A DNA stretch of 64,000 nt. It comes from Leucoraja ocellata (Eukaryota). The stretch covers positions 558,001-622,000 of the forward strand of contig JAWMAR010000447.1 in the NCBI GenBank assembly GCA_036785375.1, written 5' to 3'. The position numbers were made by a program, and so were the translations under genes. Below are positions 474 to 58,799 of this stretch, piece by piece (position 1 is the first letter of the stretch; each line of letters opens with the position of its first letter). The notes below the pieces were generated by a model. It ran no database searches. It saw only the letters and a list, made by a program, of their open reading frames with translations, and had not been told where the DNA came from.

Positions 474-626
474 CTGAAATGGAAGAGGAAATGTTGATGA
501 GTGATTGTTCTCATTGAAACAGAAATCAAGTCGAATTTTAGTTTAATTTACTGTCGTGTGTATCGAGGTACAGTGAAAATCATGCGTTGCGTGCTAACCA
601 GTCACTGGAAGGACAATATATGATAA

Positions 627-870: not shown

Positions 871-1189
871 AATCGAGCCGTTTACAGTGTACGAGATAAC
901 GAGAATAACGTGAATATCGTTTAGTACAGGTTTTAAGTCCAGTAAAGTCCAATGTCAGCGTGTTTATTGTCGATGTAATTCTGCTATTTCTATATCACAC
1001 CATCGCTTCCCTCGGTAGGCCAGATAGCTTTGAAACAAACAGAACTAACTATTTTTATTGGGGGGATGATAAGTTAATGAAAGTCTGAGAATTCTGATGT
1101 CACTATTGGCTATAGCCATGATTTTTAAACGCATTTAAAATAACACAATTCCCCTTGCTCAAAATGTCACCAGTCACTATTATCGGCCA

Positions 1190-1450
1190 TGCATGCAGTC
1201 GTGCAGTGTGGAAACGGGCCCTTCAGCCCAACTTGCCCACACCGACCAACTTGTCCCATCTACACTAGTTCCACCTGCCTGCGTTTGGCCCATGTCCCTC
1301 CAAACCTGTCCTATCCATGTATCTGTCTAAATGTTTCTGAACCGTTGCGATGGTCCCAGCCTCATCTACCCCAACTACTGGCAGCTCGTTCCATACATCC
1401 ACCATTCTTTGGGTGGAAAAAAGTTATCCCTTAGATTCCTATTAAATCTT
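1190..1450 (-). mobile_element. CR1-type LINE 3' end (second subfamily)
   Basis: gtggaaacgggcccttcagccc...ttcctattaaatcttt, shared with the RT-bearing copy at 24870-25770. Confidence 0.75.
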
Positions 1451-1460
1451 TGCGATGAGA

Positions 1461-1666
1461 GCGCAACAAACAGCTAATAATGGCCTGTTTCCTTTATCAT
1501 CGTTGCGTTTTTGCATATCTTTCATTCATTGTTCTTTGTCTCTCTACATCATCGTCTATATCTCTCGCTTCCCTTTTCCCTGACTAGTCTGAAGAAGGGT
1601 CTCGACCATTCCTTCTCTCCAGAGATGCTGCCTGTTCCGCTGAGTTACTCCAGCTTTTTGTGTCTA
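1461..1666 (+). mobile_element. Penelope-like element terminal fragment
   Basis: ctgaagaagggtctcgacc...ccagagatgctgcc...gctgagttactccagc, flanked by the near-TSD tctttgc(g/a)atgaga. Confidence 0.6.
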
Positions 1667-3949
1667 TCTTTGCAATGAGAAATACATATCCAAATATAGG
1701 TCCATTCTATTTGTGTGGATTTCATTTTCAGGCTATCCTTTTTGCACGAAAAAATAAATGGACATGAACTTTCAGAAATAATTGTGTGTAAATCATTTGG
1801 CAGACAACAACTACACTCAATATATCAAAACCGGCCACGTTTAAATTCTCTGTTATTTCCATGGATCTCGTGGGTAAATTTCCAACATTTTTGAAAGAGT
1901 CAGATTTTCTGAAAGAATCAGAAAGTATCTGATCTATTTTCGATGTTATTAAAAATAAGTTTAACGCTGTCGCAAACCAATTGAAAACGCCACGAATTTC
2001 AATCCTCAACTCAATAAAATGGTGTTTTAAAATATTAGAATGCACTACGCACAATTAGTTAAGATATTTCAAATGGAAATATGTTCGAATTTAATTCCTT
2101 GGCGAGAATAGTTATTCAAGGGAAATTTATGAAATACACCAATCTTGATGTGTGCCCCACCTATCAACTATAATGCTTTCTAACATTAAAATTAAAACTA
2201 TATAGTACTAATAATCAAAAATCAGTGATAACTTTAGCAGCAACTTTTAAATATAGACTTATTCTATATGTGTATAATGCGTATAATTTTCGCAGAGATT
2301 TGCAGCATTTTCTCTTTTGATTTTTTTCCCTCGTTCAATATGAAAGTGTTCAAACTATTTTACCAGATTTTGTTATTATTTTGAAGATGGTTTGCCTCTT
2401 GTGGCGTTAGAAACCGAGAATATACAGTTTCTTCAAGTAAGCAGTTGTTTAAAGGGATTATTATTACTTTCACACATATGCACCCTTTGTTCTTAATAAG
2501 TGAAAGCAAAGAAAATAAGTAAAATAGATTTGCGAAATATCAAACTGGCTTTTTTTCTGAGCTCAGTTTCCTAAATAATTCAGTAAGTTTTACAAGATCG
2601 CCACTTAGTTTTTTTTATCCACTGACCACTTGGTAAATCAGCAAAAGGTGAAAATACTGTACCGAAGCGATATGGCGAGTTAAATACAATTGTTTAATTA
2701 GGATATAAAGTAAAATAATGGAGTTTCAGGACGAGAGAGATTCAAAGAATTATAGTTGCACCCTGCGAGCTTTAATATTAATTGCATCTCCTCAACGGCA
2801 TTTAATTAAAATGATTTACGACTAACCAGCAAATAAGATTTTTTTGAACACACTACATTTTACATGGAGCTATCGGGTTAGGCGTTTGTATGGTGGAGTT
2901 GGAGTTTAACCTGGGTTTCTGCGCCTATTCAATGAGACAACTCCGTATTTTATTTTCTACTCCAGCAATAAACAGTTTTTTTAATCCCCCCCTCCTCCCC
3001 TCCCCAGATTGGCAAAGTTTTCCTTTGCCTTCACGTATGAAACAAAGGGTATTCGCTTACCTCAAGTTTAAGATTCTAACTTTCGATAGATGCATTCAGA
3101 GATTATTTTTTTTAACTGATCTCAACATTTTTTCAATAAATTCTTACTCGTAAAAGGAAGCGGGCGTTTTGATTCGGTGGATTATTATTTCAGAGTTGTC
3201 CGTTAAAAAGGTTCAAGCGCGGCGCGCTTATCTGTGACCATCGGGGCAGTTTTATAAACACAAAACTGCTTGTTGATCTGATCACACGGGACTGATTTAT
3301 TGATAAAGGGCTCTGCGAGTTGATTCGCGTACAATCGTAAGTTCAGCAACGCCGTTCGTATAGAGCACACACAAACACAAACAAACATTAGCAAACCCGC
3401 AGTCATTCACATCATCACTTTTATTTACACACAGAAATGCATCCACGCAGACTTACACAAATATATAAAATCATTCATTCAATGGCACATTCACACCCAC
3501 ACACACAAATTCTCAAATATACACGGAAGCGTACAAGCACACACATGCTGTTAACTTGAGCAAAACAAAATGCTGGAAGAACTCAGCGGGCCAGAGAGCA
3601 TGTGAGACGAACGGGTCGGGACCCTTCTTCAGACATTATTTGTTATTTCACACGCGTACAAATAATAGAATACTTACAAGTTTGCAAACTTTCACAGCCT
3701 CGCCCGTGCATACATGTGTCGAATCCAATTCGCAAACCCACGTACATACAAAATTCAACAGTCAAACTCACGCACGCGCAAAATACAACCCTCCACTAAA
3801 GCACTATTGAAGACAGACAGATATTGCTGAAGTAACTCAGCGGGACAAACAGCATCTCTGGAGCGAAGGGAAACATAGACATGCGCGCGTGTACGGCATT
3901 TAAAACCACGCGAAAATATGTGCGTTCAAGCAAAAGTGAGTTTTGTTAC

Positions 3950-5724: not shown

Positions 5725-6012
5725 CGACAAGAAGAGACTGCAGATGCTGGAATCTTGAGAAAAAAAATCTAAGTGCTGGAGGATAGACACACAATGCTGG
5801 AGTAACTCAACTGGTCAGGCAGCATCTCTGGAGAGAAGGAAGGAACAGGTGACGTTTCAGATCGAGACCCTTCTTCAGACTGAGGGTCAGGGGAGAGGGA
5901 AACCAGTGGTGTGGAAAGGTACAGTGTAAAGTGTGGGAGCTCAGTGGATCAGGCAGGTTAGTGCAGGGAATGGACAAAACGACGTTTCGGGTCGGGACCC
6001 TTCTTCAGACTG
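5725..6012 (-). mobile_element. Tandem Penelope-like terminal fragments with hammerhead-like cores (5851-5878, 5981-6008)
   Basis: The reverse complement of 5981-6008 reads CTGAAGAAGGGTCCCGACCCGAAACGTC. Confidence 0.65.
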
Positions 6013-7157: not shown

Positions 7158-8604
7158 CAGGGTGGAGAGGGAGAGGGAGATAAATCCCCTTGCGCAGAGT
7201 TGAAACCAGGATGAAAACTGTTGCCCAGTTCGCAACCATTTAATACAATTGAATAACGCAGGTGTTTGGATGGGGAAAAGAGGCCATGTCTCCTAAAATT
7301 GTTATTTTCAGCTGTATTCTGCCATTCCACTAATCCTTGCTAACAGAACAGGCAATGAGATTGACTGGTCATCATGAGCCCGGGTTAGATAGGATTGCCA
7401 GTTTGAATTCTCTGTTTAATTCCTCGAGAACCTGTGGTTGAAAAGTGACAGTATTTGAAGAAGCCCGAAACGTTGCCTATTTCCTTCCGTCCGTAGATGC
7501 TGCCTCGCCCGCTGAGTTTCTCCAGCATTTTTGTCCAGCTGCAAAGTGGCGGATGGATTACCGTTTGGTTGGAAATGATACGGAATTAAAAGACCCAGCC
7601 CGTGCTAATATTGAGGATGTCTCCAATTTGAGGCCTGGAGCATTTCTGTTGGGCGAATGAGCGACCTGTTCTCGAACTTGAGCAGCAACGTGTCCAGCTC
7701 TGGAAAGCGCCACAGAAGGCAGCGCTTAAGTACTTTGTGAGTTTAAATCCTCACTGTGACCTAAACCCCGACTGCTCCATTACTGCACATTGTGCGAGTT
7801 AGTGACCTTCAAACCCAGACCCCCCGCGCTATATAACTAAAACAAACGTTTCCTTCAGCCCATTCAGTTGTTTCTTGGACGAATGAAATGAATCCGGTAT
7901 TATTTGCTGTTAATATATCTATATTGACCTATCTTGTTCATTTAATTCTGTTCAATTATGTTATCCCCTATAATCTGTTGCGCTCCCGTATTGTTTAAAT
8001 GGGTCTAAATAGCCTCATGTTACATTCCATTTGCTCCATGTTGCAATCTTTCCCCATTCATCCCTTAATACTATTAAGTTAATAGTACGACAAAAGCATC
8101 CCAGATAAGTTTACAAGAAGATTCTGCAATTGTCAACTGTTACAGTTTGAAACAGAACAGATCTCGATTTCATTCCAATTGGTCTCAGCTTGAACCTCAC
8201 ATTGTCAGAAATACCAAGGCCGATTCACATTTATAGTAACCTCTGGAATGCATTAGAGCTGAAGATATGACTCGCCAACTTGATTTTATGAGCCTAAATT
8301 CCACTTTTAAATAGATTTAGACTCGAGAAGGCAGCCTCGCCACTCAGCCCATTAGGATGCATTAGAAGTGATGCACAGGACGTTCTAACTTATTGATCTT
8401 CACCAGCATGGATATGTGATATGACCCAGTCGCAGGGGGCTTAAAAAGCCACAAACAATCAATTTGCAACAATGTCGAGTTTCACAGCGGATAAGGAGTT
8501 GTCGGTACATTTCGAATAATTTGACGAGTTTTCGATCTCGTTTACATCACTCACCCGATCCATTGAGTTCATCGGGGAATTCAGTCACTACAAATACATG
8601 ATTG

Positions 8605-8775
8605 TATAGGAAGGAACTGCAGATGCTGGTTTACATCGATGATGGACAAAAATGATGGAGCATCAATGGGTCAGGCAGCATCTCTGGATACAATGAATAC
8701 GTGACGTTTCGGGTCGAGACCCTTCTTCAGACTGTCAGGGGAGAGGGAAACCAGAGGTATGAAAAGGTACAAAAC
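8605..8775 (-). mobile_element. Penelope-like terminal fragment with an intact hammerhead-like core (8703-8730)
   Basis: The reverse complement reads CTGAAGAAGGGTCTCGACCCGAAACGTC. Confidence 0.65.
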
Positions 8776-15190: not shown

Positions 15191-16133
15191 GAAGGGTGCC
15201 TATCCAAAACTTCATCTATCCATGTTCTCCAGAGATGCTGCCAGGCCCGCTGAGTTGTTCCAGCACTCTGTGTTTTTGCAATATCATGCTTCTTCAATGT
15301 AATCCATTGTGCCCAATAATACTGTATCTGCACAGAGACATATTTTGCGAGTGTAAACTAAAACAATGGAAGAAATGATGTATCAGCCACTGTGTCATAA
15401 CAAAGTTCTTGGAAAATCTCAACATATGAGAAAACATTGCACAAGAAAAATGTACCTGTTCTTCATGATTACCATGATTACGTTCTTATATAGCATTAGC
15501 TTCTTGTCGTGAATCTTCTATAATTTCATGCTCCACTGCTCTTCAATGGTTATTTTACTTTTAATACAAAAAATCCAATCATCTTTAGAACCCTACAACT
15601 TCTAAGTATCTTGATGTTTCAGGTAAAACCTTCAACAGAACATGAAAGACAAGCAATTGGCAAGGTCAAGAAAAGAGCAACAAAGACAAGTATGACAATT
15701 TTGTTTATAACTGCAACCATCATCTTCTTGAGTTAGAAAGAGGACATCCAGGATATGGTATCTAAGAAAACAACAAGTAGGTAGTATTATTATAATTGCA
15801 AAATAATTATCAGCATGAGATAGGAAAACAAAATATTGAGTTCCAGAGTCTGAATAATGTTCTATTGGCCCTGAATTTATGAAATATGCAATATTCTCAA
15901 TTACCAGGAGATCATTATCTATCGATAATATAGATAGTGCCTCTATAATTGGACATGTTAACATGCCCATTTGATTTTTATTTTAGTTTAGTTTAGTTTA
16001 TTGTCACGTGTACAGTGAGATTTCATGAATTGAATGGTGTATTCCTGTGCCACACTCAACTTTTTTCACAAATTAATACAAAAGCAGCTCATGAAAGGGC
16101 GATATGTTTGCGTTGTTCTTAGTTTTTGCAAAG

Positions 16134-16432
16134 TTTACTTTAGTTTAGGTTAGAGATGCAGCGCGAAATAGACCCTTCGGCCCACCAAGTCTGCATCGAC
16201 CAGCACATTAACAATATCCTATAGGGACAATTTAACTGATACCAAGCCAATTAACCTACAAACCTGTACATCATTGGAGTGTGGGAGGAAACCGACAATT
16301 TCGGAAAAACCCAAGCAGTTCATGGGGAGAACGTACAAACTCCATACAGACAGCGCCCGTAGTCAGGATCGAACCCAGTCTCCGACACTGCAAGCGCTGT
16401 AAGGCAGCAACTCTACCGCTGTGCCACCATGA
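16134..16432 (-). mobile_element. HE1-like V-SINE (tRNA-derived)
   Basis: tRNA-like head, V-domain (tttgtacgttctcccc...tttcctcccacactcca), CR1-shared 3' end gggccgaaggg and an (aaact)n tail. Confidence 0.8.
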
Positions 16433-17089
16433 CGTCCTAATGTTCTTGTAGCAACTTGTAGCAAAGTGTTGTGTTTATATTCGACATATGGCGATCAAAT
16501 TGCCAAATATGTAGAGGAGTCACAGGGCAATACGTAGGTGACCAAGGATTAAACTCAAAAGAACTCTTTCATTCTTAGCCAGATATTCATTGTTCAATCG
16601 TGATAATTAACTAAAAACTTGTGTTCTTCCAGATGACAGTTACAATCAGAAAGGATGGCTTCATGTTTAAACAAGCAACAGATGCTACAAGAACATAGTT
16701 TGACCCTGACACACCCACAGATTTGATCTGTCTTACTGCAAACAATAATGGAGCCATTTTACTATAACATGCAGATGAAAGGGCAACTCTATTGGGGGCA
16801 ACAATTATTTTACATATTGCCTCATATTACAGACCACTGAAGCGAATGGGGAGTACAACAGCTGTAAACATAATGTACAAACAACAATGTATGATTTCTC
16901 ACAATTTAAATTTAAATTACCCTCAAAATTGCTCAAACAGTAATGATCCAGGGATCATTATTTAAGTACGTGTTGCATTCTCCATTACTTTTTCAATGAA
17001 AGAGGCATTCAGCAAGATGCCAGTGAAAAAGATCATGTAAAAAGAATGACCCCTTCATCTGTTCCAAATATGATGGAAGCCTTCTCACA

Positions 17090-17665
17090 TTACACAGTAA
17101 ATGGTGGGCCTCTGGGTAGTGTTGTAGAGCAGAGGGATCTAGGAGTGCAGGTGCATGATTCCTTGAAGGTCGAGTGGCAGGTAGATAAAGTGGTCAAAAA
17201 AGATTTTCGAGGATGTTGCCAGAACTAGAGGGTGTGACCTATTGGGAGAGGTAGAGTAGGCTGGGTCTCTATTCCATGGCACACAGGAGGATGAGGGGTG
17301 ATCTTACAGAGGTGTACAAAATCATGAGAGGAATAGATCGGGTAGATGCACAGAGTCTCTAGCCCAGAGTAGTGGAACCGAGGACCAGAGGACATAGGTT
17401 CAAAGTGAAGGGGAAAAAATTTAATAGGAATCTGAGGGGTAACATTTTCCCACAAAGGGTGGTGGATGCATGGAACAAGTTGCCAGATGAGGTAGTTGAG
17501 GCCGGGACTATCCCAACATTTAAGAAACAGTTAGACAGGTACATGGATAGGACAGGCTTGGAGAGACCAAGCGCAGGCAGGTGCGACTACTGTAGTTGGG
17601 ACATGTTGGCCAGTGTGGGCAAGTTGGGCCGAAGGGCCTGTTTCCACACAGTATCATTCTATGTC
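17090..17665 (+). mobile_element. CR1 LINE 3' fragment with an internal deletion
   Basis: EQRDLGVQVHDSLK; RTRGHRFKVKG...QRVVDAWNKLP. Confidence 0.85.
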
Positions 17666-20207
17666 TCTATTATCAATATCAATACATGGAGTCCTTACAC
17701 AGAAAAAATACAGATTTATTTAATATCAAGCACATAAAAATTAGGAACAAAGAGGATCGTTTGAAGCATTTGACACTCATCCCTATTCTTTCAACCTTTT
17801 TTTTGCCTGACATGAATATTATCCAATTGATTTATTCAATAGAGGGAACATTTCATAAACTGACCCTAAATGGAGACCAAATAAAAACCTAAAACTTAAT
17901 TCAGACTGGACATTATTCATCTTTGGTTGCATTCCATGGCATTACGTTTTCCAGGGTTCAAGCAGCTCAGGAAACATCGTGTTCCACAGAGTATTTGATC
18001 ATTTCTAACTACATATCCTGAAAACTTCTACTTCTGTCCCAAGCCAGATATTTATCCAGCTGTTTTTCAGAGGAGTTAATCAACGCAACATTAATCACTT
18101 TTGTTGATAGTTTGTTCCACATATCCACAAGTTCACGATAAACAATATTTCTTCTAATCTTCAGCATATTTCCCACAATTTAGAGTACCGACTCCTAGAA
18201 TTATGGATGTTGTTTTCTCAACCTTCCCAAATGCATACTTTCCCTTTTAAAGACAACGTGCTGAAAACTACACACAATGACCCAAAGATGAACAATTAGT
18301 GCCAGAAAAAAACTACAATAACTTGATGAAAATAATAAAATTAACTTTTAGCCTGTGATATCCATTGCCCGATGACGCTTTATTTTCTTACCAGCATTGC
18401 ACAGTTATAACATAGAAGCCTTTTCTTACTTCTATGTAGTAACCACTCCAGGAGAAAAAAGGGGTGAGGCTGAAATGAAATATGCTGTTTAATTGGGGTT
18501 TATAGAGAGACAATGTGTTCTTTATTGTTGGTCTATAGGTATGATATATTTTTAAAAATACATGTCCAACAGGAAATATTCATGATAATGATGCCAATGA
18601 CATGAGACCCAATTTATATGTAATAATAGATCATAGAACATAGAATAATACAGCACAGGAGTAGACCCTTCGGCCGACAATGTCCATGCCGAACCTGATG
18701 TCAAATTAAACTCATCTCCTCTGCCTGCACGTGACCCATATTTGGAGTGGATTTTAAATTTTACCAGACTGTTTATTTTTCATGGGTAAAGTATCAGATC
18801 GAGAAAATTTGCATCAATACACAATCCGATAGATCCGCCAATGGCAGAGCAGACCTGGTGGGCTGAATAGCCGAATTCTGCTTCCATAACTCATGATATA
18901 CATAGTTGTATCCTGCAGTGAAATTTCGGGCTTACGATATATGCCACTGATTCATGTGAATCAGGGCCACTTTTTTGTTTCAGAAAGGAATGCTTTTGGT
19001 GAATATACGATACGATACAATATGATACGATATGATAAAACATTCATCCCCGGAGGAAAATTGGGAAATATCTCAGCAACAGTCACTTTTGCTATTTCAT
19101 TTTGACAATAATGGATTCATTTAAACTTCTAATATTATTATTATTGCACTGCCAACGGAAAGTTATGTTGCAGTAGATTTTTGTTAAGAATTATGTTAAT
19201 ATCAGAACAGTGAGAACTGCCGGACATTACGTATATACAATTAACACCAAACCAAGCTGAAACATTTTACTGCTAACATTCCATATATCTGGCCAGCATT
19301 TGACAATAACGTTCTCACTAGCCTGCACTAAGAGGCACACACCAGCTGGTGTCTGTACATTTATACACTTTTCAACTCATTCAGGATTCGTTGTCAGACT
19401 TGTTCTAACACAGCATCCAGCAATAATCGATCCTATCTTTCCAAGGTATATTTTTTAGGCATCTGTACAAAGATTCAAGGTCTTGCATTTCCAATGGAAC
19501 AATAACCATGCCTGGTGTTGATGTGTGAGACTACTGTAGTCAATGGCAAGATTAAAGCATCTCAATAAGGCAGTGAACCTCACATGGATATAACAACATT
19601 ACATCTCATTTACAGTATGAATCAGGCTACTTGACCCAATTGGTCCTTTACAGTGTTGATGCTGGTTGGAGGGCCCTTCCACCTTTCTTCTTGCTGTAGG
19701 TAACATCTCTCCATGGCTACCCTTTTAAACCCTTTCATGATCTTCAAAAATGATGGTCAGCTCACCCCTCAGTCTTGGAGAATAAAATCCTTGTCTGCTC
19801 AACCTTTCCTGGTGCAGATAACATTTCCATTTCACAACCATTCTTGTTACATATGAAATCTGGACTGGTCTGACACAACTTCATTACGATGTTCACTAGA
19901 AATTCTGAAGGGTCTCGACCCGAAATGTTGCCTATTTCCTTCGCTCCATAGATGCTGCCTCACCCACTGAGTTTCTCCAGTATTTTTGTCTACCTTAGAA
20001 ATTCAACTTGATGCCTAGTTTGCATTACTTATCCAAGCCAAATAATCCTTGTATCGGTTTCCCTTTACACGTCCGCACCTTTGTTCTTTGAGACACTCAT
20101 TCTCTAGGCTTATGGCACCCTTCTTATCACAATACGCCACTGGCATATTTGTACTGAGGTTCGTTAGGTGGCAATTCCTCATTTTTATTGACTCCTTATT
20201 TCATGTA

Positions 20208-24297: not shown

Positions 24298-24719
24298 TAG
24301 GGTGATTTCATCAAAGTTAAAATGAGTGTAGATCCCCCCTCACGTGACCGAAAAATTTAACTGGAGGACATATGTCACTTCGGTACATGTTAGTGAATGG
24401 GGAAACACGCACTTTCACACCTGTTAAAAACATGGAAAACGGCCGATTTTTGAGCTGAAATTTTCTGTGCTAGTCGGGGTGACCGTGAAGCACAGCGACC
24501 TAAATTTTCAGGCAAAAAAAAGATAGAAAGTAAGGTAATTACAAGAGGGAACTGAAGGTGGAAAACAGCGGAAGTGAACAGCAGACATTTGACGTGGAGA
24601 TTTAAAGGTCCAAAATATCGGGAATTTTCGCATTTGCTTGCTGAATTTCATCAAAAGTAAGTTAATAATGCCTTACTTTTGATGAAATTCAGCGAGCAAA
24701 CGCGATAATTCCCGATATT
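24298..24719. mobile_element. Truncated DNA-transposon-like (MITE) fragment ending in a ~48-bp-arm inverted repeat
   Basis: CpG-rich block that starts abruptly inside a Penelope fragment; hairpin at 24614-24719. Confidence 0.5.
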
Positions 24720-24869
24720 AATTCCCAGGCTGAATTGACTTGTATTTTATTGGTATTTGTGTTGATATCGGATGCGATAAACCACCTCTATTCTCAAAGC
24801 GCACATTGTGTAATCACATATACAAGTGGAGCATTTGCCAATGCTACTTTGTGTGTGGATGCCCGCACT

Positions 24870-25770
24870 TAGAGTCATAGAGTGATACAGTGTGGAAACA
24901 GGCCCTTCGGCCAAACTCGCCCACACCGGCCGACAATGTCCCAGCTTCACTAGACCCACTTGCCTGCGCTTGGTCCATATCACTCCAAACCTGTCCTATT
25001 CATGTACCTGTCTAACTGTTTCTTACACGATGGGATAGTGCCAGCCTCAACTACCTCATCTGGCAGCTTATTCCATACACCCACCACCCTTTGTGTGAAA
25101 AAGTTACCCCTCGGGATTCCTATTAAATCTTTTCCCCTTCACCTTGAACCTATGTCCTCTGGTCCACGATTCCTCTACTCTGGGCAAAAGACTCTGTGCA
25201 TCTACCCGATCTATTCCTCTCATGATTTTGAATACCTCTATAAGATCACCGCTCATCCTCCTGCACTCCACAGAATAGAGTCCCAGCCTACTCAACCTCT
25301 CCCTACAGCTCTCACCCTCTAGTCCTGGCAACATAAATCTTTTCTGAACCCTTTCAAGTTTGACAATATCTTTCCGATAACATGATGCGCAGAACTGATC
25401 ACAATATTCTAAATGCGGTCTCACCGACGTCTTATACAATTGCAACGTGACCTCCCAACTCAATACTCTGACTGATGAAGGCCAAAGTGCCAAAAGTCTT
25501 TTTGACCACCTATCGACATGCAACTCGACCTTCAAGGAACCATGCACCTGTACTCGGTCCCTCTGCTCTACACCACTACCCGGACGCCCACCATTTACTC
25601 TGTAGGTCCTGCCCTTGTTCGACGTCCCAAAATGCAACACCTCACACTTCTCTGTATTAAATTCCGTCAACCATTCCTCCGCCCACCTGGCCAATCAATC
25701 CAGATCCTGCTACGATCTTTCACAACCATCTTCACTATATGCAAAACCACTAACTTTTGTATCAACTCTT
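24870..25770 (-). mobile_element. 5'-truncated CR1 LINE
   Basis: ORF WAEEWLTEFNTEKCEVLHFG...[13 protein letters not shown]...LERVQKRF...TRGHRFK. Confidence 0.92.
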
Positions 25771-29145: not shown

Positions 29146-30218
29146 GATTTCATCTAGATCCTCCCCTGTTTAAAGACATCGTTGACATCATCAGTTTAAT
29201 GCTATCAGGTGTTCTAGTGCATGGATTACAGAAAGCTTTTGAGAGGCTTTTGGATAAGTGCATGGATATGCAGGGGATGGAGGTATATTCATGATGCGCA
29301 GGCAGAGGAGATTACTGGCACTGACATTGTGGGCCAAAGGGCCTGTTCCTGTGATACACTGTTCTTGTTCTATGTAAGATGTTCAGCCCAAACATGAAAG
29401 CTGATTGACATCATTAATCATCCATAGATAGACAAAAAATGCTGGAGTAACTCAGCGGGACAGGCAGCATCTCTGGAGAGAAGCAATGGGTGACGTTTCG
29501 GGTCGAGACCCTTCTTCAGGCGTTATTAAATTATCATTATCATTATCATTAAAGCATCATTAAACATCCCATCTCCTTGTGGAGTCAGACAGGGTCCTGT
29601 TCCTTCAGTACACTGTTCAGTCTATGCTACAGAACAAGGCTCATCTTAGAGATTAAAGTATATGGTGGAGCTCCGTTGTCAGTGAGACTGGGAAGGTCTG
29701 CAATAGAGACAAGTGATTACAGCAATAACACTAAATGCTGGGGTAACTCAATGGGTCAGGCAGCATCTTTAGAGATTTTGAATAGGCAACATTTTGGGTC
29801 AGAACCCTTCTTCAGACTAATTATAGTCGGGGGAGAAAGCTGGAAAAGAGATAGGGACAGGGCAAAGCCTGGCAAATAGTAGGCAGGAACAGATGAGGAG
29901 AGTTTGATTGCAGGTGGGTGAAGAAAGGTTAGAAAAGGAGGCAAAAGAGTGTCAGATATGGAGAGAAGTGGAGTGAAATGTTCAGTTTAGGTTAGTTTAG
30001 TTTATTGTCACGTGCACTGAGGTGCAGTGAAAAGCTTTTTGTTGCGTGCTAACCAGTCAGCGGAAAGACTATACATGATTACAATCAAGCCGTCCACAGT
30101 GTACAGATACACAATAAAAGGAATGCCATAATGCAAGATAACGTCCAGTAAAGTCTGATTAAAGGTCGTCTGTGCGTCTTTAATGAGGTAGATAGTTGCA
30201 TAGGACTACTCTCTAGTT

Positions 30219-30417
30219 AGACACAAAATGCTGTAGTAACTCAGCGGGTCAGGCAGCATCTCTGGAGAGAAGGAATGGGTGACGTTTCAGACTGAAAAAG
30301 GGTCTTGACCCGAAACGTCACCCATTCCTTCTCTCCAGAGATGCTGCCTGACCCCCTGAGTTACTGCAGGATTTTGTGCCTACCTTTGATATAAACCAGC
30401 ATCTGCAGTTCTTTCCT
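30219..30417. mobile_element. Penelope-derived fold-back repeat inserted in a Rex/Babar tail
   Basis: Inverted arms; near-TSD actact(c/a)tctagtt. Confidence 0.7.
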
Positions 30418-30672
30418 ACTACTATCTAGTTGTTGGTAGGATGATTCAGTTGCCTGATAATATCTGGGATGAACCCGTCTCTGAATCTGGAGGTGTGTAA
30501 ATCAACAAGGAGAGATATAAGTGGAAGGGAATGGGTGGGGGGAGTGGGGAGAGGGGCAGATAGTGGGAAAATAGGTGGGGTGAGAGGGAGCACAGGAAAG
30601 AGAGAACAGGCATGAGAGATGTTATTAAAGTTGGCGAATTCGGTGACCATACCTTGTGTTGTAAGCTACCCA

Positions 30673-30897
30673 CGGTAGACACAAAATGTTGTAGTAACTC
30701 AGTGGGATAGGCAGCATATCTGGAGAGGAATGGGTGGCGTTTCGGGTCGAGACCCTTCATCAGACTGAAGAAGGGTCTCGACCCGAAACGTCACCCATTC
30801 CTTCTCTCCAGAGATGCTGCCTATCCCACTGAGTTACTCCAGCATTTTGTGTCTACCTTCGATTTCAACCAGCAGCTGCAGTTTTTTCCTACGTATA
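30673..30897. mobile_element. Penelope-derived fold-back element with back-to-back hammerhead-like cores and a 14-bp TSD
   Basis: TSD ttgtaagctaccca at 30659-30672 and 30898-30911; ~85-bp inverted arms; cores at 30736-30763 (-) and 30765-30792 (+). Confidence 0.8.
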
Positions 30898-31962
30898 TTG
30901 TAAGCTACCCAAATGGGTTTTACTGGGCACAATAAGTTACGTTAAACGTTCTGTGCAGATTAGAGCATGAATCGATACGTTAGGATAAAACAAATCAATT
31001 GAGCATTAATTGTCATCCCAAGAGAATATCCACACATACAGCCGTGGCGCCAAATAAAATATGTAATCGGGTTTATAAAATGGGGCGAGAAGCAGTGAAA
31101 CTGTCTCGGGCATCTTCACTTTGAGTAAGTATGTCTTGATTTATTGAATCCGTAACTAACCGGGATGCCTCTGTGTAGTTTACAGCCCTCATACTCCAAG
31201 TTCGATCTGCCACGTTAAAATGATGATTCCTGGACTTGAAAATGACAAATAATTTAAGGAAGTAGGGTCTCGACCCGAAACGTTGCCTATTTCCTTCGCT
31301 CCATGGATGTTGCCTCACCCGCTGAGTTTCTCCAGCATTTTTGTCTACCTTCGATTTCCCAGCATCTGCAGTTCCTTCTTAAACATAGTAATTTAAGGAC
31401 AATCAGTTGGCTGCCGAAGGTACAAAGCGGAGCCACGTTTAAAACAAACCCTTCACCGCAGATAGGCACAAAATGTTGATGACTGGAGTAACTCAGCGGG
31501 TCAGGCAGCATCTCTGGAGAAAAAACGGCCCTTCACGGCAGGGACGGTTCATGAATTGCCAATTTGTTAAATTGTTCCAGATAATCTGTTCATTTTTCCA
31601 AGTCAAATTTTGGATTAAAGAAAATTCCCCCCATAAACAACATTTTGTTGTATATTCGAATTAAATGTTACGGCGTTTCAACATTATGCTGGCGGATCAG
31701 TGTGAAAAAGTAGTTTGATCAATTGGGTACGAGGTGAAACTGAGCTAATGTTGCTGCGTTATTGTGTGTCCGATATAGGGAGCCTAAATGTGAGTTTAAC
31801 TGTGTGTGGGCCAGCTGGCTTTTAAACGGGACCATCCTTAGAGGTTTCCTACAAAGCCACAAGTGATATTTTTCGCGCAAATTGAGCTTAAATGTGATTC
31901 CCAAACCTCCAAATACACTGTTGTCCATCTGCGATCTTGCCCCTAACCTCTCCAAATGCTTT

Positions 31963-33434: not shown

Positions 33435-33974
33435 TGTCTACATATACTCTGAACTTTTTTTTCTCATTTATTATATTGTTTACATATTCTCTTGTGCTGC
33501 TGCAAGTTAAAAAATCATTGTTCTATCTGGGACATATGACAATAAAACACTCTTGAATTTCTCAAACTATTCTTTGCCAAAATATAAACTTTATTCAAAA
33601 TAGAGACATGCCATTTTGAAATAGCCCACATCTCATGTTCCAATATGTGTAACTTGCATTAGCACAGCAACTTCCGCTCATGGTTCTATCTTTGCAGAAA
33701 CTCTGCAAGCCTTTCCTGACCTTCACCTTGACCCGCCGTTTTTCATTGAGTTGCTGGGTTGCTTTCTTCCACGGGACTTAGCCCATGGTGCACTATGTGA
33801 TTTATTCAGAAGGTGCCTTTTGGCCGAAATATCGGAGCACAGGAAAGCTGGCCACAGACACTGAAGCAGGGCCTAAACAGTGTCATTTTACTTAACTGAG
33901 CCCTTGTCTTGTTTTTCAGGTGGAGAGGAAAGAGATCACACTGTACTGCTCGAAAATCAGTGTTAAGCCTAGAG

Positions 33975-34272
33975 TTTAGTTTAGTTTAGAGAGACAGCAC
34001 AGAAACAGGCCCTTTAGCCCTCCGAGTCCACGCCCACCTGTGATCCCCGCATACTAGCACTATCCTACACACACGCTAGGGACAATTTACAATTATACAG
34101 AAGCCAATTAACGTACAAACCTGTTACGTCTTTGGAATGTGGGAGGAAACCTGATGCCCATAGAAAACCTACACAGTCACAGGGGGAATGTGCAAACTCC
34201 ATACAGACAGCATCTAATGTCAGCTGTCTCTGGTGCTGTAAGGCAGCAACTCTACCGCTGCACCACCATGCT
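33975..34272 (-). mobile_element. HE1-like V-SINE
   Basis: Same head, V-domain and tail motifs as the other copies. Confidence 0.75.
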
Positions 34273-37052: not shown

Positions 37053-37276
37053 AATTCACAATCATTAAATGAGAAACACATGATATTCATGGATTTTCAA
37101 ATAATATATTCAACGTCGTTCTTAGTGTCACCTTTTTAACTTCCTGTGAGAAAAACATTAACTCACAACTCCGAAACAGGGGCTCTTCTCAGTACCAAAG
37201 TGCTAGCAGGAGGATTCATGTTATTTGAGGATTCACAACAGTAACACCACAATCCATCACAAAAATCACAACCTTT

Positions 37277-37542
37277 AGATTAGTTCAGAGATGCAGCACA
37301 GAAACAGGCCCTTTGGCCCACTGAATCCGCGCCGACCAGCGACCCCCGAATACTAACGCTATCCGAGACACACTGGGAAAATTTACAATTTTACCAAAGC
37401 CTGTTCACCCACAAATCTGTATGTCTTGAGTGTGGGAGAAAAACCAAAACTGTACAGAATCTGTACAGACAGCAGCCGTGGTCAGGATTGATCCTGAGTC
37501 TCTGGCGCTGAAAGGCAGCAACTCTACCGCTGAGCCACCACG
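37277..37542 (-). mobile_element. HE1-like V-SINE
   Basis: Same diagnostic motifs as the other copies. Confidence 0.75.
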
Positions 37543-38369
37543 CTGAACTACTTTGTTTCTTCTTGAAACTCACAAAAATCTCCTTCCTGAGGATGGAGAG
37601 TAGGGAGCCAGGATTTATAATTTTAAGATGGGCGAGATGAAGAATTTTCTCTAGCCCTGAAGGCTGTGGATATTTAGTTATTGCAGTCAGTACATTTTGA
37701 ACTCCAGGGAAATCAGGTGCATTGGAAATAAGGCAACAAAGTGTAATTGTGGTAGAGGATTACACATTGTCACAGATAACTACACCTTATCTGATTGTAC
37801 TGAATGAGATAACAGCTAGCTGGGACATGTGGTCTGACCTACTCTTATTTCTTATGCTTTTCACAAGTATGTTTTTAACAATAATTTTGGCTTCATAAAG
37901 ACCTACACAATCCAAAAAATCCTAGTAAATGGAAGTTGGCACCACAAAACATTTTGGGTTCGACTTCAGCTGCAATTACATTGGTTAATTGTGAGATCTC
38001 TCGGGAAAATCATTCCCATATAGTCTTTCCAATATAACGCAATTTACCTTTCTATGGAAACATTTGTAATGCTGCAATGGTGGAATTATGTGGTGGAAAC
38101 TACAGCAACTCTGCCAGCGCAAAGAGAGATATACGTATGGTGCGAACTGGACATAACCAATTTCAACAACAGATATACCTACAGAATGCCATACTGGAAA
38201 AGAAAGTAAATTTACAATATATTTACAAAATAAGCCGAACCGAATCATAGCACCTATCTTCGAATCATGGGGTTTTTTTTGTTTAACACTGAAGGTTTAT
38301 GAAAATAATATAACCAGGAAGCTCTGGGAGATATATTTGAATGAAGTATCAAAATGAAGTATCAAAAAG

Positions 38370-41055: not shown

Positions 41056-41178
41056 TGATAATTAACAGAAGTGTTAACTTGTTCATTTTACACAGTTTGA
41101 TGCAATCGTTACATTAGCAGAAGGAGGATTCCTGGTTAAACATTCGTACCATATCATCAATCACAGTAAATATCAGGA

Positions 41179-41384
41179 ACTCAGCGGGTGCAGCAGCATC
41201 TATGGAGCGAAGGAAATAGGCAACGTTTCGGGCCGAAACACTTCTTCAGGTTTCGGCCTGAAGAAGGGTTTCGGCCCGAAACGTTGCCTATTTCCTTCGC
41301 TCCATAGATGCTGCTGCACCCGCTGAGTTTCTCCAGCTTTTTTGTGTACCTTCGATTCTCCAGCATCTGCAGTTCCTTCTTAAA
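41179..41384. mobile_element. Young Penelope-derived fold-back element with a hammerhead-like core and a 17-bp TSD
   Basis: TSD cacagtaaatatcagga at 41162-41178 and 41385-41401; core CTGAAGAAGGGTTTCGGCCCGAAACGTT at 41258-41285. Confidence 0.8.
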
Positions 41385-41784
41385 CACAGTAAATATCAGG
41401 ATCATTTTTCTCTATTCCTTCATCTTTGAACTTTGGACTAATTATGTCATTTTTCAGTAAAATATTTCATAGGAGATAGGGCAGTAGCCGCAGCCCAACT
41501 TTCTCATCTCCATGTTTGCTGTAATATAAGCCAGTCTCTTTTGCTCAGTCATCTTCACTTCAAATTCGACGTCATCACCCTTTTTTGATCACAGTGCTGA
41601 AATAAAATGCGGCCACAGCTTCAATCTTTAATTTCCCATTCCTTTTTCTCATAACCTCTTGTACCTACATCTCCCAGAATTCCTTTTAGAGGCCTACACA
41701 GGATTCTGCTGTATGTTCATTAGTGATTGATTGATTGATTGATCAATGGATTGATTGATCAATGGATTGATTGATTGATTAAAT

Positions 41785-46460: not shown

Positions 46461-48002
46461 TTCCTCTGGAGTTGGAGCGGGGCTGGGCTGGAGTTGCTGA
46501 TCTGGGATCTCCGTGCTTGCAGTGGGCCTGGGGGTCGGTGTCCCGATGAGGGGGCGCAGCTCGGGCTGTGGGCAAACTGACACTTGTCGCCGTAGCGACC
46601 CATCGGGGAGCGGTTTCAGGTGGTCCTGACGTCTTCGACCACCCCCCTGTACAGGAGCTGAGACTGGGAACTGTACCGCCCTTGCAGGTGAGCAGGAGAG
46701 TGGGGTTGTTTGCAGTTGCAGAGGGAGGGGGCAAGGGCGGTACAGTTCCCAGTCTCAGCTCCTGTCCAGGGGGGTGGCCGGAGACGTCAGGACCAACAGG
46801 AACCCGCTCCCCGATGGGCCGCTACAGCGACAAGTGGCAGTTCGCCCACAGCCCGAGCTGCGCCCCCTTATCCGCAACCCGGGTTCCTCTGGAGTTGGAG
46901 CGGGGCTGGGCTAGAGTTGCTGCTGGCTGTGAGTCTCCGGGATCTCCGTGCTTGCAGTCGGTGTCCCGTTGGACCTGATGTCTCCGGCCACCCCCCTGGA
47001 CAGGAGCTGAGACTGGGAACTGTACCGATCTTGCCCCCTCCCTCTGCAACTGCAAACAACCCCACCCTCCTGCTCACCTGCAAGGGCGGTACCCGCAACC
47101 CCAAGAACAAGACGTACCTTGCACACCATCAGCTTCTGTCGCTACGGGGAGCGTGTTCCCCTGGAGTTGGAACGGGGCTGGGCTGCTGCTGGCTGTGGGT
47201 CTCTGGGATCTCCGTGCTTGCAGTGGGCCTGGGGGTCGGTGTCCTGTTGGTCCTGACGTCTCCGGTGACTGGCACTGACCTGCTGGCATCACTGACGTGA
47301 AGACAGTGCAAAGCCCCCGCACCGGTGCAATGGGCGGGGAGCTGGAGAGGGGAGGGAAGGGGTCACACACATGGCCGGGAAGCAGAGGGGTGTAGGTGGG
47401 GTGAAACTGAAGGGAGCGACAATCTGCTGCTGCCTGCCCGTTGAGTTAAAAAGTTCCCACGCAAGACTCACGATACACTGTGTATCGTGAGTCTACCGTG
47501 GGAACTTTTTAACTCAGCGGGCAGGCAGCAGCAGATTGTCAATTATTAACCCTCCCGCGCAATATACCCTCACCTTCTCTTTATGAATGGGGATTTAGTT
47601 CCCCTTTCTTCGAGGACCGACCAGAGGTTCTGCTGTCATCACTGCGGGCCGCCCTCGGTAAACGTCTTCAAGGACCTTTCTTCAAGGACCGAAAAAATGT
47701 CCGCTATTCGGAGCTTTTCGATATTTGGAATTTCGGATAAAAGGTTGTGCACCTGTACATTACTGCCAGGCAACATGTGGCCACTTAATGTCGTACAGTC
47801 ATAGCACCATAGCGTCATACAGCATGGAAATAGGTCCTTACAGGCCCAACTCGTCCATGCCGACCAAGATACCACATCTAAGCTAGTCCCATTTGCTCAA
47901 AACATTTGGCCTATCACCTCCCTAAATCTTTCCTTATCCGTGTCCTGGTCCAAGTGTGTTTTACATGTTGTTAATTTTTCATGTTGCCCCAACGACATCC
48001 CC

Positions 48003-48306
48003 TCGGTGGCGCAGCGGTAGAGTTGCTGCTTTACAGCGCTTGCAGCGCCAGAAATCTGGAATCGAACCCGACAACGGGTGCTCTCTGTACGGAGTTTGTA
48101 CGTTCTCCCCGTGGCAACATGGGTTTTCTCCGAGATCATCGGTTTCCTCCCACACTCCAAAGACGTACAGTGGTGTAGGTAAATTGGCTTGGTAAATGTA
48201 AAAATTGTCCCTAGTGTGTGTAGGATAGTGTTAATATGCAGGGATTGCTGGTCGGCGCGTACCTGGTGGGCCGAAGGGCCTGTTACCGCGTTGTATCTCT
48301 AAACAT
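48003..48306 (+). mobile_element. HE1-like V-SINE abutting a CR1 3' fragment (~47800-47985, minus strand)
   Basis: cggtggcgcagcggtagagttgctgc head, V-domain and gggccgaagggcctgtt tail. Confidence 0.85.
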
Positions 48307-49284
48307 AAACATAAGTTAATTTTTGAGTTGGACTAAATATAACCCCAAATCACCGAAGAGAAGACTGTTCAAATCTAATTTAAAACTATAGATATATGAT
48401 CAAGTTGAAATTGCTCCAAAGGTAGAACAGCTATTATTTGATTCAGTACTTGAGTTATATTTCCATGTTTATATCCGAAAACTCGAAAATAGTTGCAGTT
48501 ACACCTTATCATTATCTGTCAACATAATATGCTCATTTGGCATTCCAGTGCTAAAGATTCTTGCATAGCTTTTATCCCTTGAGGATGACTCTCTCTTAGC
48601 CATTCCCCAAAATGTCAACGCCAACACTGAGTTAAAAAATGCTACTGCGAAGTTTTTGTTAAAAAATGGGGGAGGTTATGTGTTGGCTAACTGGCATTCC
48701 TGTTAATCATTAATAATTTTGGAGTTCGCCTTTTCATCTGCTTTTGATTTACTAGCACCCCTTAGAATGTCATTCTTGGTTACTTTATTCTTACTTGTGA
48801 TGGAATATATTCTGCTATTTTTTTACTTTTTTCTTTAAATATTTCCCAAAGTTATATATCATACAGCAATATTTTTCTCCAGTTTATTTTTATTGAATAC
48901 ATCTTCATTTTCTAATAATTGCTTTTTGCCTATAATATTACTTTAGGTTTTTGTATCTTCATTATCTCTTTAATCAAACCATCTGATACTGCAATCTCTT
49001 TTCAATATACAAAGTGCTGGAGTAACTCAGCGGGTCAGGCAGTATTTCTACAGAACATGTAGGTGACATTGCAGGTCGGGACCCTTCTTCAGACAGTCAT
49101 TATATCCTATATATTCGTAGATATTACCTTTTCTAATTCTCCAGTTCATTCCCATTTCAAAATTCGTAAAGTCAATAAAGTTCATTAAGTCAACATTTAT
49201 TCTTGAGTGAGTAACAGGGAACATACTCCTGAAGCCTGTTCAGTCCATGTAGTGAAGGAAATCTCACAGAGAACCAAGATAGTA

Positions 49285-51772: not shown

Positions 51773-51974
51773 CCAATTTTAGGTAGTCCTTGCTTTCTCT
51801 TTCTTTCCCCTCCCCTTCCCAGCTCTCCGCCTCTTCCTTTCTTCTTCCCACCCTCCCCCCCTCCCCACCCCCACATCAGTCTGAAGAAGGGTCTCGACCC
51901 GAAACGTCGCCTATTTCCTTCGCTCCATAGATGCTGCCTCACCCGCTGAGTTTCTCCAACGTTTTTGTCTACCT
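51773..51974 (+). mobile_element. Penelope-like 3' terminal fragment with an intact hammerhead-like core (51881-51908), 14-bp TSD
   Basis: TSD ttgcatgttatggt on both sides. Confidence 0.75.
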
Positions 51975-52154
51975 TTGCATGTTATGGTTTGATCGCGTTA
52001 TTGGTAGGAAGGAACTGCAGATGTTGGTTTACACCAAAGGTAGTCGCAAAATGGTGCAGTAACTCAGCGGGACAAGCAGCATCTCGGGAGAGGAGGAATG
52101 GGTGACACTTCAGGTCAAGACCCTTATTCAGACTGAAGTGGGTTTTGACCCTAA

Positions 52155-53481: not shown

Positions 53482-56479
53482 AGGGGCTGTCTCACTGCGG
53501 TGACCTAATTCGCGAGTTCGGACGAGTTTCCCCATGACTCATACTCGCAGCATGGTCGACATGAGGTCCTAGAAGGTCTTTGTAACTCTCCTTCATGCTC
53601 GAGAGTAGTCCCTGCATACTCAAGGCCTCAGTTAGGTCGCGGCGTATTTTTCAACATGTTGAAAAATGCCCGCGAGTAAAAAAAGATCGAAATGGAAAAA
53701 ATCAATATTTTTTTACTCGCGGGTTTAGTCGAGGTAGGTCATAGTAGGTCATAATGCTATTTGTAGGTAGTCTCAATCAAAGTTAATCAAAGGTAGTTGA
53801 AGGCAAAGCTCATTGAGAAAAATAAGGCAAGTAAACCGACCGGTAATGCTAAATGCTCGCTAAACTTTATTAAACATGGTCTGGCTTCTTAGAAACATAG
53901 AAACATAGAAAATAGGTGCAGGAGTAGGCCATTCGGCCCTTCGAGCCTGCACCGCCATTCGATATGATCATGGCTGATCATCCAACTCAGTATCCCATCG
54001 CTGCCTTCTCTCCATACCCCCTGATCCCTTTAGCCACAAGGGCCACATCTAACTCCCTCTTAAATATAGCCAATGAACTGGCCTCAACTACCTTCTGTGG
54101 CACAGAATTCCACAGATTCACCAATCTCTGTGTAAAAAATGATTCTCTCATCTTGGTCCTAAAATACTTCCCTCTTATCCTTAACCTGTGACCCCTAGTT
54201 CTGGACTTCCCCGACATCGGGAATAATCTTCTATAAGATCCCTCCCTCAATCTTCTGAATTCTAGCGTGTACAAGCCGAGTCTATCCAGCCTTTCTTCAT
54301 ATGAAAGTCCTGCCATGCCAGGAATCAGTCTGGTGAACCTTCTCTGTACTCCCTCTATGGCAAGAATTTCTTTCCTCAGATTAGGAGACCAAAACTGTGC
54401 ACAATACTCCGGGTGTGGTCTCACCAAGGCCCTGTACAACTGCAGTAGAACCTCCCTGCTCCTATACTCAAATCATTTTGCTTTGAATGCTAACATACCA
54501 TTTGCTTTCTTCACTGCCTACTGCACCTGCATGCCTACTTTCAATGACTGGTGTACTATGACACCCAGGTCTCATTGCATCTCCCCTTTTCCTAATCGGC
54601 CACTATTCAGATAATAGTCTACTTTCCTGTTTTTGCCACCAAAGTGGATAACCTCACATTTATCCACATTATACTGCATCTGCCATGCATTTGCCCACTC
54701 ACCCAACCTATCCAAATCACCTTGCAGTCTCCTAGCATCCTCCTCACAGCTAACATTGCCCCCTAGCATCGTGTCATCCGCAAACTTGGAGATGTTGCAT
54801 TCAATTCCCTCATCCAGATCATTAATATATATTGTAAATAGCTGGGGTCCCAGCACTGAGCCTTGTGGTACCCCACTAGTCACTGCCTGCCATTCTGAAA
54901 AGGACCTGTTTACTCCTACTCTTTGCTTCCTGTCTGCCAGCCAGTTCTATCCACATCAATACTGAACCCCCAATACCGTGTGCTTTAAGTTTGTATACTA
55001 ATCTCTTATATGGGAACTTGTCGAAAGCTTTCTGAAAGTACAGATATAACACATCCACTGGTTCTCCCTTATCCACTCTACTAGTTACATCCTCTAAAAA
55101 TTCTATAAGATTCGTCAGACATGATTTACGTTTCATAAATCCATGCTGACTTTGTCCAATGAATTCACCACTTTGCAAATGTGCTGCTATCCCATCTTTA
55201 ATAACTGACTCCAGAATTTTCCCCACTACCGATGTTAGATTAACTGGTCTGTAATTCCCCGTTTTCTCTCTCCCTCCATTTTTAAAAAGTGGGGTTACAT
55301 TAGCTACCCTCCAGTCCTCAGGAACAACTCCAGAATCTAAAGAGTTTTGAAAAATTATCACTAATGCATCCACTATTTCTGCGGCTACTTCCTTAAGTAC
55401 TCTGGGATGCAACTTATCTGGCCCTGGGGATTTATCGGCCTTTAATCCATTCAATTTACCTAACACCACTTCCCGGCTAACCTGGATTTCACTCAGTTCC
55501 TCCATCTCATTTAACCCCCGGTCCCTTGCTATTTCCGGCAGATTATTTATGTCTTCCTTAGTGAAGACACAACCAAAGTAGTTATTCAATTGGTCTGCCA
55601 TGTCCTTGTTCCCCATGATCAATTCGCCTGTTTCTGACTGCAAGGGACCTACATTTGTTTTAACTAATCTTTTCCTCTTCACATATCTATAAAAACTTTT
55701 GCAGTCAGTTTTTATGTTCCCTGCCAGTTTTCTTTCATAATCTATTTTCCCTTTCCTAATTAAGCCTTTTGTCCTCCTCTGCTGGACTCTGAATTCCTCC
55801 CAGTCCTCTGGTAGGCTGCTTGTTCTGGCTAATTTGTATGCTTCATCTTTTGTTTTGATACTATCCCTGATTTCCCTTGTTATCCACGGATGCACTACCT
55901 TCCTTGATTTATTCTTTTGCCAAACTGGGATGAACACTTGTTGTAGTTCATCCATGCAGTTGTTAAATGCTTTCCATTGCATATCCACCGTCAACCCTTT
56001 AAGAATCATTTGCCAGTCTATCTTGGCCAATTCACGTCTCATACCCTCAAAGTCACCTTTCTTTAAGTTCAGGGCCCTTGTTTCTGAATTAACAATGTCA
56101 CTCTCCATTCTAATGAAGAACTCAACCATATTTCTTAAAAGTGTCTCCTCTCCTTCACCCCCCCTTCTCCCCCCTTCTCTCCCCTTCTCTTCCCCTCTCT
56201 TCCCTTCTCTCCACCCCTCCCTCCGCGCTCTCTAAAGGACTTACCGAACTGTGCCAGCCGTATTTTACCTTCCTGTTCATCACGGGTGTGAATTTCAAAT
56301 AGCGCTCCCCCGCTTCCCTTGGCCCCCGCCTTTGCGATGTGTTTGTGTGTGCAGACAGTCGATCCGGCTCGTGGTTTCATCGCTGATGGTTGATCCAGCT
56401 CGAGGTTTTTCAGGCAAGTGCCCTCGAGCTTGAAGGTCGAAGACAGTCTCTGAAAAGTCGCATCAATGGGACCGGCCCT
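53482..56479. mobile_element. PIF/Harbinger-like MITE interrupted by a CR1 LINE
   Basis: TTA TSD (53479-53481 and 56480-56482); termini AGGGGCTGTC and GGGACCGGCCCT. Confidence 0.75.
53892..56131 (-). mobile_element. 5'-truncated CR1/HER1-type LINE, ORF2 reverse transcriptase (few disablements)
   Basis: KSPGPD, NYRPVNLTS, QHGF..KSCLTNL, FQKAFD, GVPQGSVLGP and KFADD motifs over three ORF pieces; (aaacatag)n tail; candidate TSD ttctta. Confidence 0.95.
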
Positions 56480-58160: not shown

Positions 58161-58478
58161 GGGGCGGAAGGATGGCGCAGCGGCAGAATTGCTGCCTTGC
58201 AGTGCTAGAGGCCCGGGTTCGATCCTGACTACGGGTACTGTCTGTACGGAGCTTGTACGTTCTCCCCGTGACCTTCTGGGTTTTCTCTGGGTGCTCCGGT
58301 TTCCTCCCACACTACAAAGACGTACGGGTTTGTAGGTTAATTGGCTTTGATAAAAATTGTAAATTGTTCCTACTGTGTAGGATAATGTTAGTGTGCGGGG
58401 GGGGGGGGTAGCTGGTCAAGGCGGATTTGGTGGGCCGTAGGGCCTGTTTCCGATCTATATCTCTAAACTAAGCTAAAC
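58161..58478 (+). mobile_element. HE1-like V-SINE
   Basis: cccgggttcgatcc B-box, V-domain and tail. Confidence 0.85.
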
Positions 58479-58799
58479 GTTTAGCCCCAAACTATCGCCT
58501 ATGTAAACATTTTACCCATTTTGCAAATGCATTTTCTTCCAGTCAAGTACAGAGGTCTCATACTGTAACGTTTCCTTTAGGATAAATCAAAGAATGCCTA
58601 TATCAGTAGATAAATTCAAAGAGTACTGGTGTATCACTTTAATACTGTATAGTGTATATTCATCTGCATAATGCATTGTAACAATGCCAAGGAATAGAAA
58701 ATTGTTTCAAATCCCAGGACCATTATAGGGTAATAAACCAATACTGCAAGGAAAGGTGCTGTTTTATCCATTGTGCATATTCACGCTGAACATCGATCG

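Follow-up and report, generated by a model that had tools for sequence, protein, structure and literature searches.

Minimal type I hammerhead motifs of a probable Neptune-type Penelope-like element: pseudo-LTR location and high-copy short insertions in a skate genome

The motif that recurs through the 64,000-nucleotide stretch of skate DNA analysed here (the window) is best explained as a minimal type I hammerhead located in the pseudo-LTR (pLTR) of a Neptune-type Penelope-like element (PLE), with the window copies representing short insertion products that are likely inactive as ribozymes; we assign this reading a probability of about 0.86. Judged by sequence tests, the motif is a PLE minimal hammerhead and would be expected to work like one. 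Its core was constrained in the master elements, and there was no constraint in the dispersed copies. In the mechanism we propose, the protein of the element would nick DNA and start reverse transcription inside the RNA at two 3'-end sites, as in Anolis Poseidon, using a template RNA whose hammerhead site is presumably uncut. Weak cutting after GUC/GUU would be likely in tandem masters that are active, with the ribozyme working either as an ACGU dimer or with the aid of the element's protein.

To count copies in the window, the 28-mer at 30765-30792 was used as the query, and 30 matches with up to 8 mismatches were obtained on both strands, 4 of them exact, compared to a chance expectation of 0 in 10 simulated 64-kb sequences. 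The earlier note's figure of roughly 30 recurrences on both strands was thus borne out. The number of family fragments in the window rose to 50 when the query included the 3' extension. The hammerhead core was kept in 10 of the 30 copies and the core together with stem II and the 15.2-16.2 pair in 8. Five copies, at 5851, 5981, 8703, 41258, and 51881, had every part of the minimal hammerhead, including the ACGU half of helix III and a helix I of 2-3 bp. Six sites had previously been listed as intact; their coordinates and cores were right, but 29492-29519(-) and 30765-30792(+) were devoid of the helix I 5' strand (0 bp). The stem II variants did keep pairing, as had been claimed, but only by way of loop changes and one change from U-A to a U.G wobble. 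The window held a single candidate for a cis-dimer, the pair at 5851..6008(-), with G10.1.U11.1 in the core at 5851-5878 and a wobble helix I at the core 5981-6008. In the plus copy at 41258-41285, helix I is 3 bp long and was supplied by the inversion junction. The principal features are collected in Table 1. Clean deletion of stem II between short repeated GAA words was found three times (window positions 30289-30311 on the minus strand, and loci L125 and L135) and is what template switching across the hairpin would give.

Table 1. Coordinates, in window positions, of motif copies and of the parts of the fold-back insertion
Feature	Position	Strand	Remarks
Broken motif copy	3605..3632	-	without GAAA; sense strand of bHLH gene intron 474-3949
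Same-strand pair	5851..6008	-	cores 5981-6008 and 5851-5878; same strand, 130 bp apart
pLTR copy and tail	8603..8734	-	complete minimal motif at core 8703-8730; helix I 2 bp
Short copy	29426..29519	-	core 29492-29519 exact; without 5' strand of helix I
Left target-site duplication	30659..30672		14 bp
Short arm of fold-back	30674..30763	-	pLTR copy from core to ~+90; core 30736-30763 broken
Inversion junction	30760..30768		palindromic TCAG-A-CTGA; overlaps core C3-A6 of both arms
Long arm of fold-back	30765..30892	+	exact core 30765-30792 without helix I 5' strand; to ~+128 including 35-nt tail
Right target-site duplication	30898..30911		14 bp
Second-subfamily fold-back pair	41175..41386		with target duplication; cores 41222-41249(-) and 41258-41285(+)
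Copy with ~110 nt of native PLE 3' UTR	51773..51975	+	start approximate; complete motif 51881-51908; end ~+95

A model search for hammerheads, which had been suggested as a check, returned none: no hammerhead family was among the 22 Rfam covariance-model matches in the window at E values up to 1, a result that is expected because the minimal form is without helix III. The Rfam matches were instead to microRNA-precursor models on fold-backs, all below threshold. Near-perfect palindromes of ~110 bp at 24612-24723, 46652-46764, and 47421-47536, which do not belong to the PLE family, were seen as such microRNA-model matches.

The flagged segment at 30674-30892 proved to be a single fold-back insertion flanked on both sides by a 14-bp target duplication, and an 18-mer spanning this type of junction occurred 3,623 times in the genome. 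Both motif copies at the site were broken, one arm having lost U16.1 and the other the helix I strand. The minus core (30736-30763) does differ at the free N7 position (N7 = U, CTGATGA), as had been noticed, but it also reads GAAACGCC, i.e., U16.1 is changed to C, and this break in the core had been overlooked. Either strand of the insertion was predicted to form one hairpin (approximately -165 kcal/mol, z about -20), and a single long hairpin of this kind would be predicted to exclude the ribozyme fold.

To define the architecture of the motif, 214 copies were clustered on downstream sequence alone, which resolved five groups (subfamilies), and core positions C3-A9, G12-A15.1, U16.1, and H17 were present in all 5 subfamily consensuses. 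Helix II consisted of GGGU paired with ACCC or GCCC, a 4-nt loop, and G10.1-C11.1, and the putative helix I measured 2 bp (GU/AC or GU/GC); the helix III palindrome ACGU (15.1-16.1) was present, with a self-duplex of only -1.7 kcal/mol. The CUGANGA/GAAA/UH core and the ACGU palindrome, from which the motif had been recognised, are indeed features that PMC4209133 gives for PLE minimal hammerheads, and the extra A after the core, previously raised as a caveat, loses its force as an objection, since an extra nucleotide after A9 is a conserved feature of these motifs in the same paper; it was found in 79 of 83 sampled copies here. The subfamily consensuses differed at 0 of 11 core positions versus 4 of 7 free positions (p = 0.011), and the four free-position differences lay in loop II and H17, one of them representing CpG decay. 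Three of 14 stem positions differed as well, all leaving U.G pairs. A subfamily with a compensatory C-G pair in helix I was looked for and not found (1,598 C..G versus 2,018 C..A), nor was any double compensatory change in stem II or helix I found within the family. G12, the general base, sits in a CpG and was diverged by 30% in the 83 sampled copies, compared to 29% at a downstream control CpG, and this decay at the CpG background rate indicates that inserted copies are not protected. Matches suggestive of other families with a longer stem II were, for the first 100 of 1,893, insertion variants of the same family.

Folding predictions in the native context gave stem II and helix I probabilities of 0.01 or less in all four loci shown, with the purine-rich core predicted to pair with a downstream pyrimidine tract, and cofolding was predicted to favour a stem II duplex over the ACGU duplex. 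An unpopulated native fold, as predicted by these ensembles, would fit a protein-assisted ribozyme.

The PLE origin proposed for the motif was supported by its linkage to GIY-YIG endonuclease and reverse transcriptase (RT) sequences on the same strand, the motif following the endonuclease by about 100-280 nt. A GIY-YIG endonuclease was located upstream of exact motif copies; among 30 loci selected by the core, 13 carried the endonuclease 98-521 nt upstream, and in 25 of 30 loci selected by the endonuclease a sense core followed no more than 1.1 kb downstream, at a distance of 170-280 nt in 19. Walking 5' from the endonuclease, we found the RT motifs GVAMG and YLRYIDD, and RT, thumb, endonuclease, and pLTR motif were collinear in 7 of 15 fetched stretches; motifs and order place a GIY-YIG endonuclease with cysteines inside its core at the C terminus, after the RT. 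The hammerhead motif is situated in the pLTR on the ORF strand, its sequence runs on into the start of the PLE ORF, and at locus L181, a partial tandem, it precedes the RT ORF on its 5' side (order: endonuclease end, pLTR motif, ORF start, RT, LINE insertion, endonuclease). A CX4CxxC linker (CNRRRCNTC) was present between RT and endonuclease, and a CX2-5CxxC linker marks Neptune and Nematis PLEs (PMC8557442). The linker, although common to Nematis, suggests that the element is a Neptune-type PLE. In addition, partial tandems, inverted 5'-truncated copies, and a 30-40-bp tail were present as PLE hallmarks. The endonuclease matched Pfam GIY-YIG below the cut-off (E = 0.0011) and a 115-aa RT piece had no Pfam match, while the ESM Atlas neighbours were GIY-YIG (0.96-0.97) and RVT_1/HTH_animal (0.95); Pfam being weak, the PLE assignment rests on the motifs and the ESM Atlas neighbours. 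All ORFs seen were broken, none of the elements encountered had both pLTRs, and a motif scan revealed no PLE ORF within the 64-kb window.

The RT matches in the window at 54572-56231 were considered as a PLE RT and rejected as LINE-type in a scan of 8 window ORFs, and broken LINE-type RT copies unrelated to the PLE occupy 53987-56231(-), 24870-25694, and 17187-17737, with Pfam RVT_1 recognised on two pieces. An open stretch at 60874-61278(-) matched Pfam ALKBH8_N (E = 1e-13) and probably derives from the C-terminal portion of a further LINE family. A dispersed 300-bp repeat (37253-37544, with about nine related copies, including 16130-16437, 33973-34272, 48004-48332, and 58162-58481) gave a weak tRNA match of 28.5 bits at 37253-37544 and is probably a tRNA-derived SINE.

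The window also contains a bHLH gene (Pfam HLH), called TCF21 in the earlier note, a name that its likeness would suggest, with an ATG at 4411 and an intron at 474-3949 that is supported by one contig. The degenerate partial copy that had been reported on the sense strand of this intron was recovered, without GAAA (Table 1), and no complete motif was found inside the intron.

Genome counts were made on the 3.44-Gb assembly, in which two exact 27-mers occurred 23,567 and 36,086 times, and a pattern combining the core with a GGG/CCC stem, the ACGT palindrome, and a helix I of 2 bp was matched 70,400 times (controls, 0). In 40 arbitrarily placed 10-kb stretches (400 kb), 195 family fragments made up 4.6% of the bases, which extrapolates to ~1.7 million family fragments genome-wide; the core, stem II, and palindrome were retained in 21 of the 195 sampled fragments and helix I as well in 13. 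A density of one motif per 2 kb, as put forward in the earlier note, therefore holds for family fragments, also as a genome average, but not for complete motifs, which occur at approximately one per 49 kb. Many loci were paired and ~97% alike over kilobases (e.g., L001/L011, L007/L008, and L025/L026), such that both haplotypes are likely represented in parts of the assembly, and haploid counts are lower because of these near-identical duplicated regions.

The 3' ends of the copies were bimodal, with 58 of 157 at +90-99, 49 of 157 at +125-134, and none past +149; these two end sites are 35 nt apart, and the likely ATG at +165 lies beyond both. The 5' ends piled up 0-4 nt before C3, or the copies were inverted, and 42 head-to-head pairs, which are self-complementary fold-backs, were present among 245 fragments. 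Copies started at the cut site in 2 of the 245 fragments and no more than 2 nt from it in 10, and copies spanning the cut site would have come from uncut or religated template. Among 147 young copies picked solely by an exact core, 66 had the native 3' UTR upstream (58 for at least 100 nt), 32 were inverted, 4 were tandem, and 45 joined unrelated DNA. The copies joining unrelated DNA still started with GT in 35 cases and showed a target duplication of at least 8 bp in 25, compared to 1.6 for shuffled pairs, and 19 of these 25 ended within 5 nt of C3. Target duplications of the copies were 8-14 bp long, and many young copies represented complete 95- or 130-bp units beginning 0-4 nt before the core.

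The 5' boundary coincided with YCAGT, and the Initiator consensus YYANWYY (PMC2715227) fitted 62 of 66 native copies despite their unlike 3' UTRs; the consensus is nevertheless common by chance (11.8 per kb). In Penelope of D. virilis, the corresponding region contains an internal TATA-less promoter (PMC2377424). In the reading that we prefer, transcription would probably start at the Initiator-like YCAGT by the core; alternatively, the sharp boundary could arise from template switching at the TCAG/CTGA palindrome. Building on a start at the Initiator, we tentatively suggest, at somewhat less than even odds, that the stubs of 95 and 130 bp did not arise by random truncation and that each represents, in full and with a target duplication, the initial 95 or 130 nt of a capped transcript starting 2-4 nt before the core, that internal RT initiation on monomeric transcripts integrates strong-stop-like products, and that the ribozyme is a 5'-leader switch. 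If this were true, the shortness of helix I (2 bp) would be explained by the leader switch, and hundreds of thousands of strong-stop-like products would fill ~4.6% of the genome.

Four of the 66 native copies (L003, L005, L290, and L331) carried TCAAT in place of TCAGT before the core, a variant in which the Initiator match is kept and the AG and one helix I pair are broken. A G at the 5' junction, possibly cap-derived, was counted by hand in 56 of the first 100 copies listed; 11 of 29 loci were inversions with a templated G, and plain copies divided into 9 with G versus 9 with T. All subfamilies displayed a splice-acceptor-like arrangement 5-30 nt upstream of the core, with a pyrimidine tract, branch-point-like words, and a CAG abutting the core. 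An intron ending at this CAG, as in D. virilis, was rejected, the GT at the ORF end belonging to the stop codon context and lacking conservation, and 61 apparent spliced copies were mostly the 3' UTR end of another subfamily (15 loci examined). No GT..AG joint was found among 15 joints of 292, and no conserved splice donor was found for the CAG before the core.

Among the rival explanations, the one with the greatest consequence is that the dispersed intact copies act together as a functional pool, cutting transcripts of the host or generating circular RNAs, a reading that goes back to the very large pool of potentially self-cleaving RNA inferred in the earlier note. The 70,400 copies fitting the full minimal consensus, the occurrence of family sequence in contigs from sequencing runs that are presumed to be of RNA, and the existence of some same-strand pairs (5851/5981) are consistent with such a pool; however, the full consensus was kept in only 13 of 195 fragments, G12 decays neutrally, the native fold was predicted to be unpopulated at each of the four loci shown, fold-back pairs are predicted to collapse into a single hairpin, and the PLE motifs in the literature show no activity as monomers, little as dimers (8 of 9 Xenopus dimers uncut), or depend on protein. 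A pool of host-cutting ribozymes would matter far more if it were true, but the evidence points against it, and we regard it as very unlikely. A nature of the repeat as a non-autonomous family, either a retrozyme or SINE-like and independent of PLE ORFs, is highly improbable: most copies are 95-130 bp, target-duplicated, and without an ORF, as such a family would be, but the sequence follows the endonuclease and continues into the PLE ORF start, and no tandem arrays of 170-400-nt units with canonical hammerheads were found in the window.

A closer competitor, although still an unlikely one, concerns the masters themselves, in which the motif might owe its retention chiefly to a role as core promoter or binding site for protein, with the Initiator-like YCAGT on its 5' edge, so that a hammerhead would be vestigial even there. 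The 2-bp helix I, the uncut templates, and the Initiator fit of native copies across unlike 3' UTRs all agree with a site of this type, as do the continued in vitro insertion with hammerhead mutants (PMC11167929) and the fact that Naiads thrive without the motif. On the other hand, the Initiator consensus is frequent by chance, and variation in the masters is confined to loop II, H17, and wobbles, which is where a hammerhead tolerates change.

Minimal hammerheads in PLE pLTRs were described in PMC4209133 as mostly solitary, with ~9,000 in Xenopus tropicalis, and as inactive in monomeric and weak in dimeric form, and protein dependence appears in PMC11167929. The skate motifs share with them the CUGANGA/GAAA/UH core, the extra base between A9 and 10.1, G10.1-C11.1, and the palindromic 15.2-16.2, and are likewise mostly single, derived from truncated PLEs, and found in opposite-strand pairs. 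They differ in their number (70,400 complete copies) and in stem length, helix I being 2 bp and helix II 4 bp versus 4-5 and 7-8 bp in schistosomes (PMC4209133). Shark, skate, Callorhinchus, and Leucoraja were absent from the searched supplements of the minimal-hammerhead survey, a 2026 preprint screened one chondrichthyan genome for tandem retrozymes, and no report of PLE minimal hammerheads was found for cartilaginous fish in the literature searched. Our results likely extend these motifs to a very high-copy family in cartilaginous fish, and the 70,400 complete motifs provide a natural dataset for asking if such ribozymes cut in vivo.

The closest mechanistic parallel is Anolis Poseidon PAc, for which Frangieh et al. 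2024 (PMC11167929) linked the PLE tail with RT initiation at two internal sites of an RNA that is uncut: both elements would have two such sites giving an optional tail and an uncut RNA substrate, and both have a hammerhead near the pLTR/ORF junction, whereas the PAc ATG is inside the ribozyme rather than at the likely +165 and Poseidon is without the CX2-5CxxC linker of the skate family. The sharp boundary on the 5' side of the skate copies, together with their two 3' ends, offers a direct and testable map of where PLE RNA and its reverse transcription start. Neptune-clade EN+ PLEs (Craig et al. 2021, PMC8557442) resemble the skate element in the C-terminal GIY-YIG, the Zn-finger-like linker motif, heavy 5' truncation, partial tandems, an adjacent inverted copy, and the 30-40-bp tail, and the skate family differs from them in its clear 8-14-bp target duplications and its sharp 5' boundary at the ribozyme. 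Finally, axolotl non-LTR retrozymes, with 126,247 type I hammerheads (PMC7229834), are comparable in the very high number of motifs in a vertebrate and in the dimer type of their ribozymes, but they are canonical hammerheads in 170-400-nt tandem repeats, whereas the skate motifs are minimal and form the dispersed ends of a PLE.
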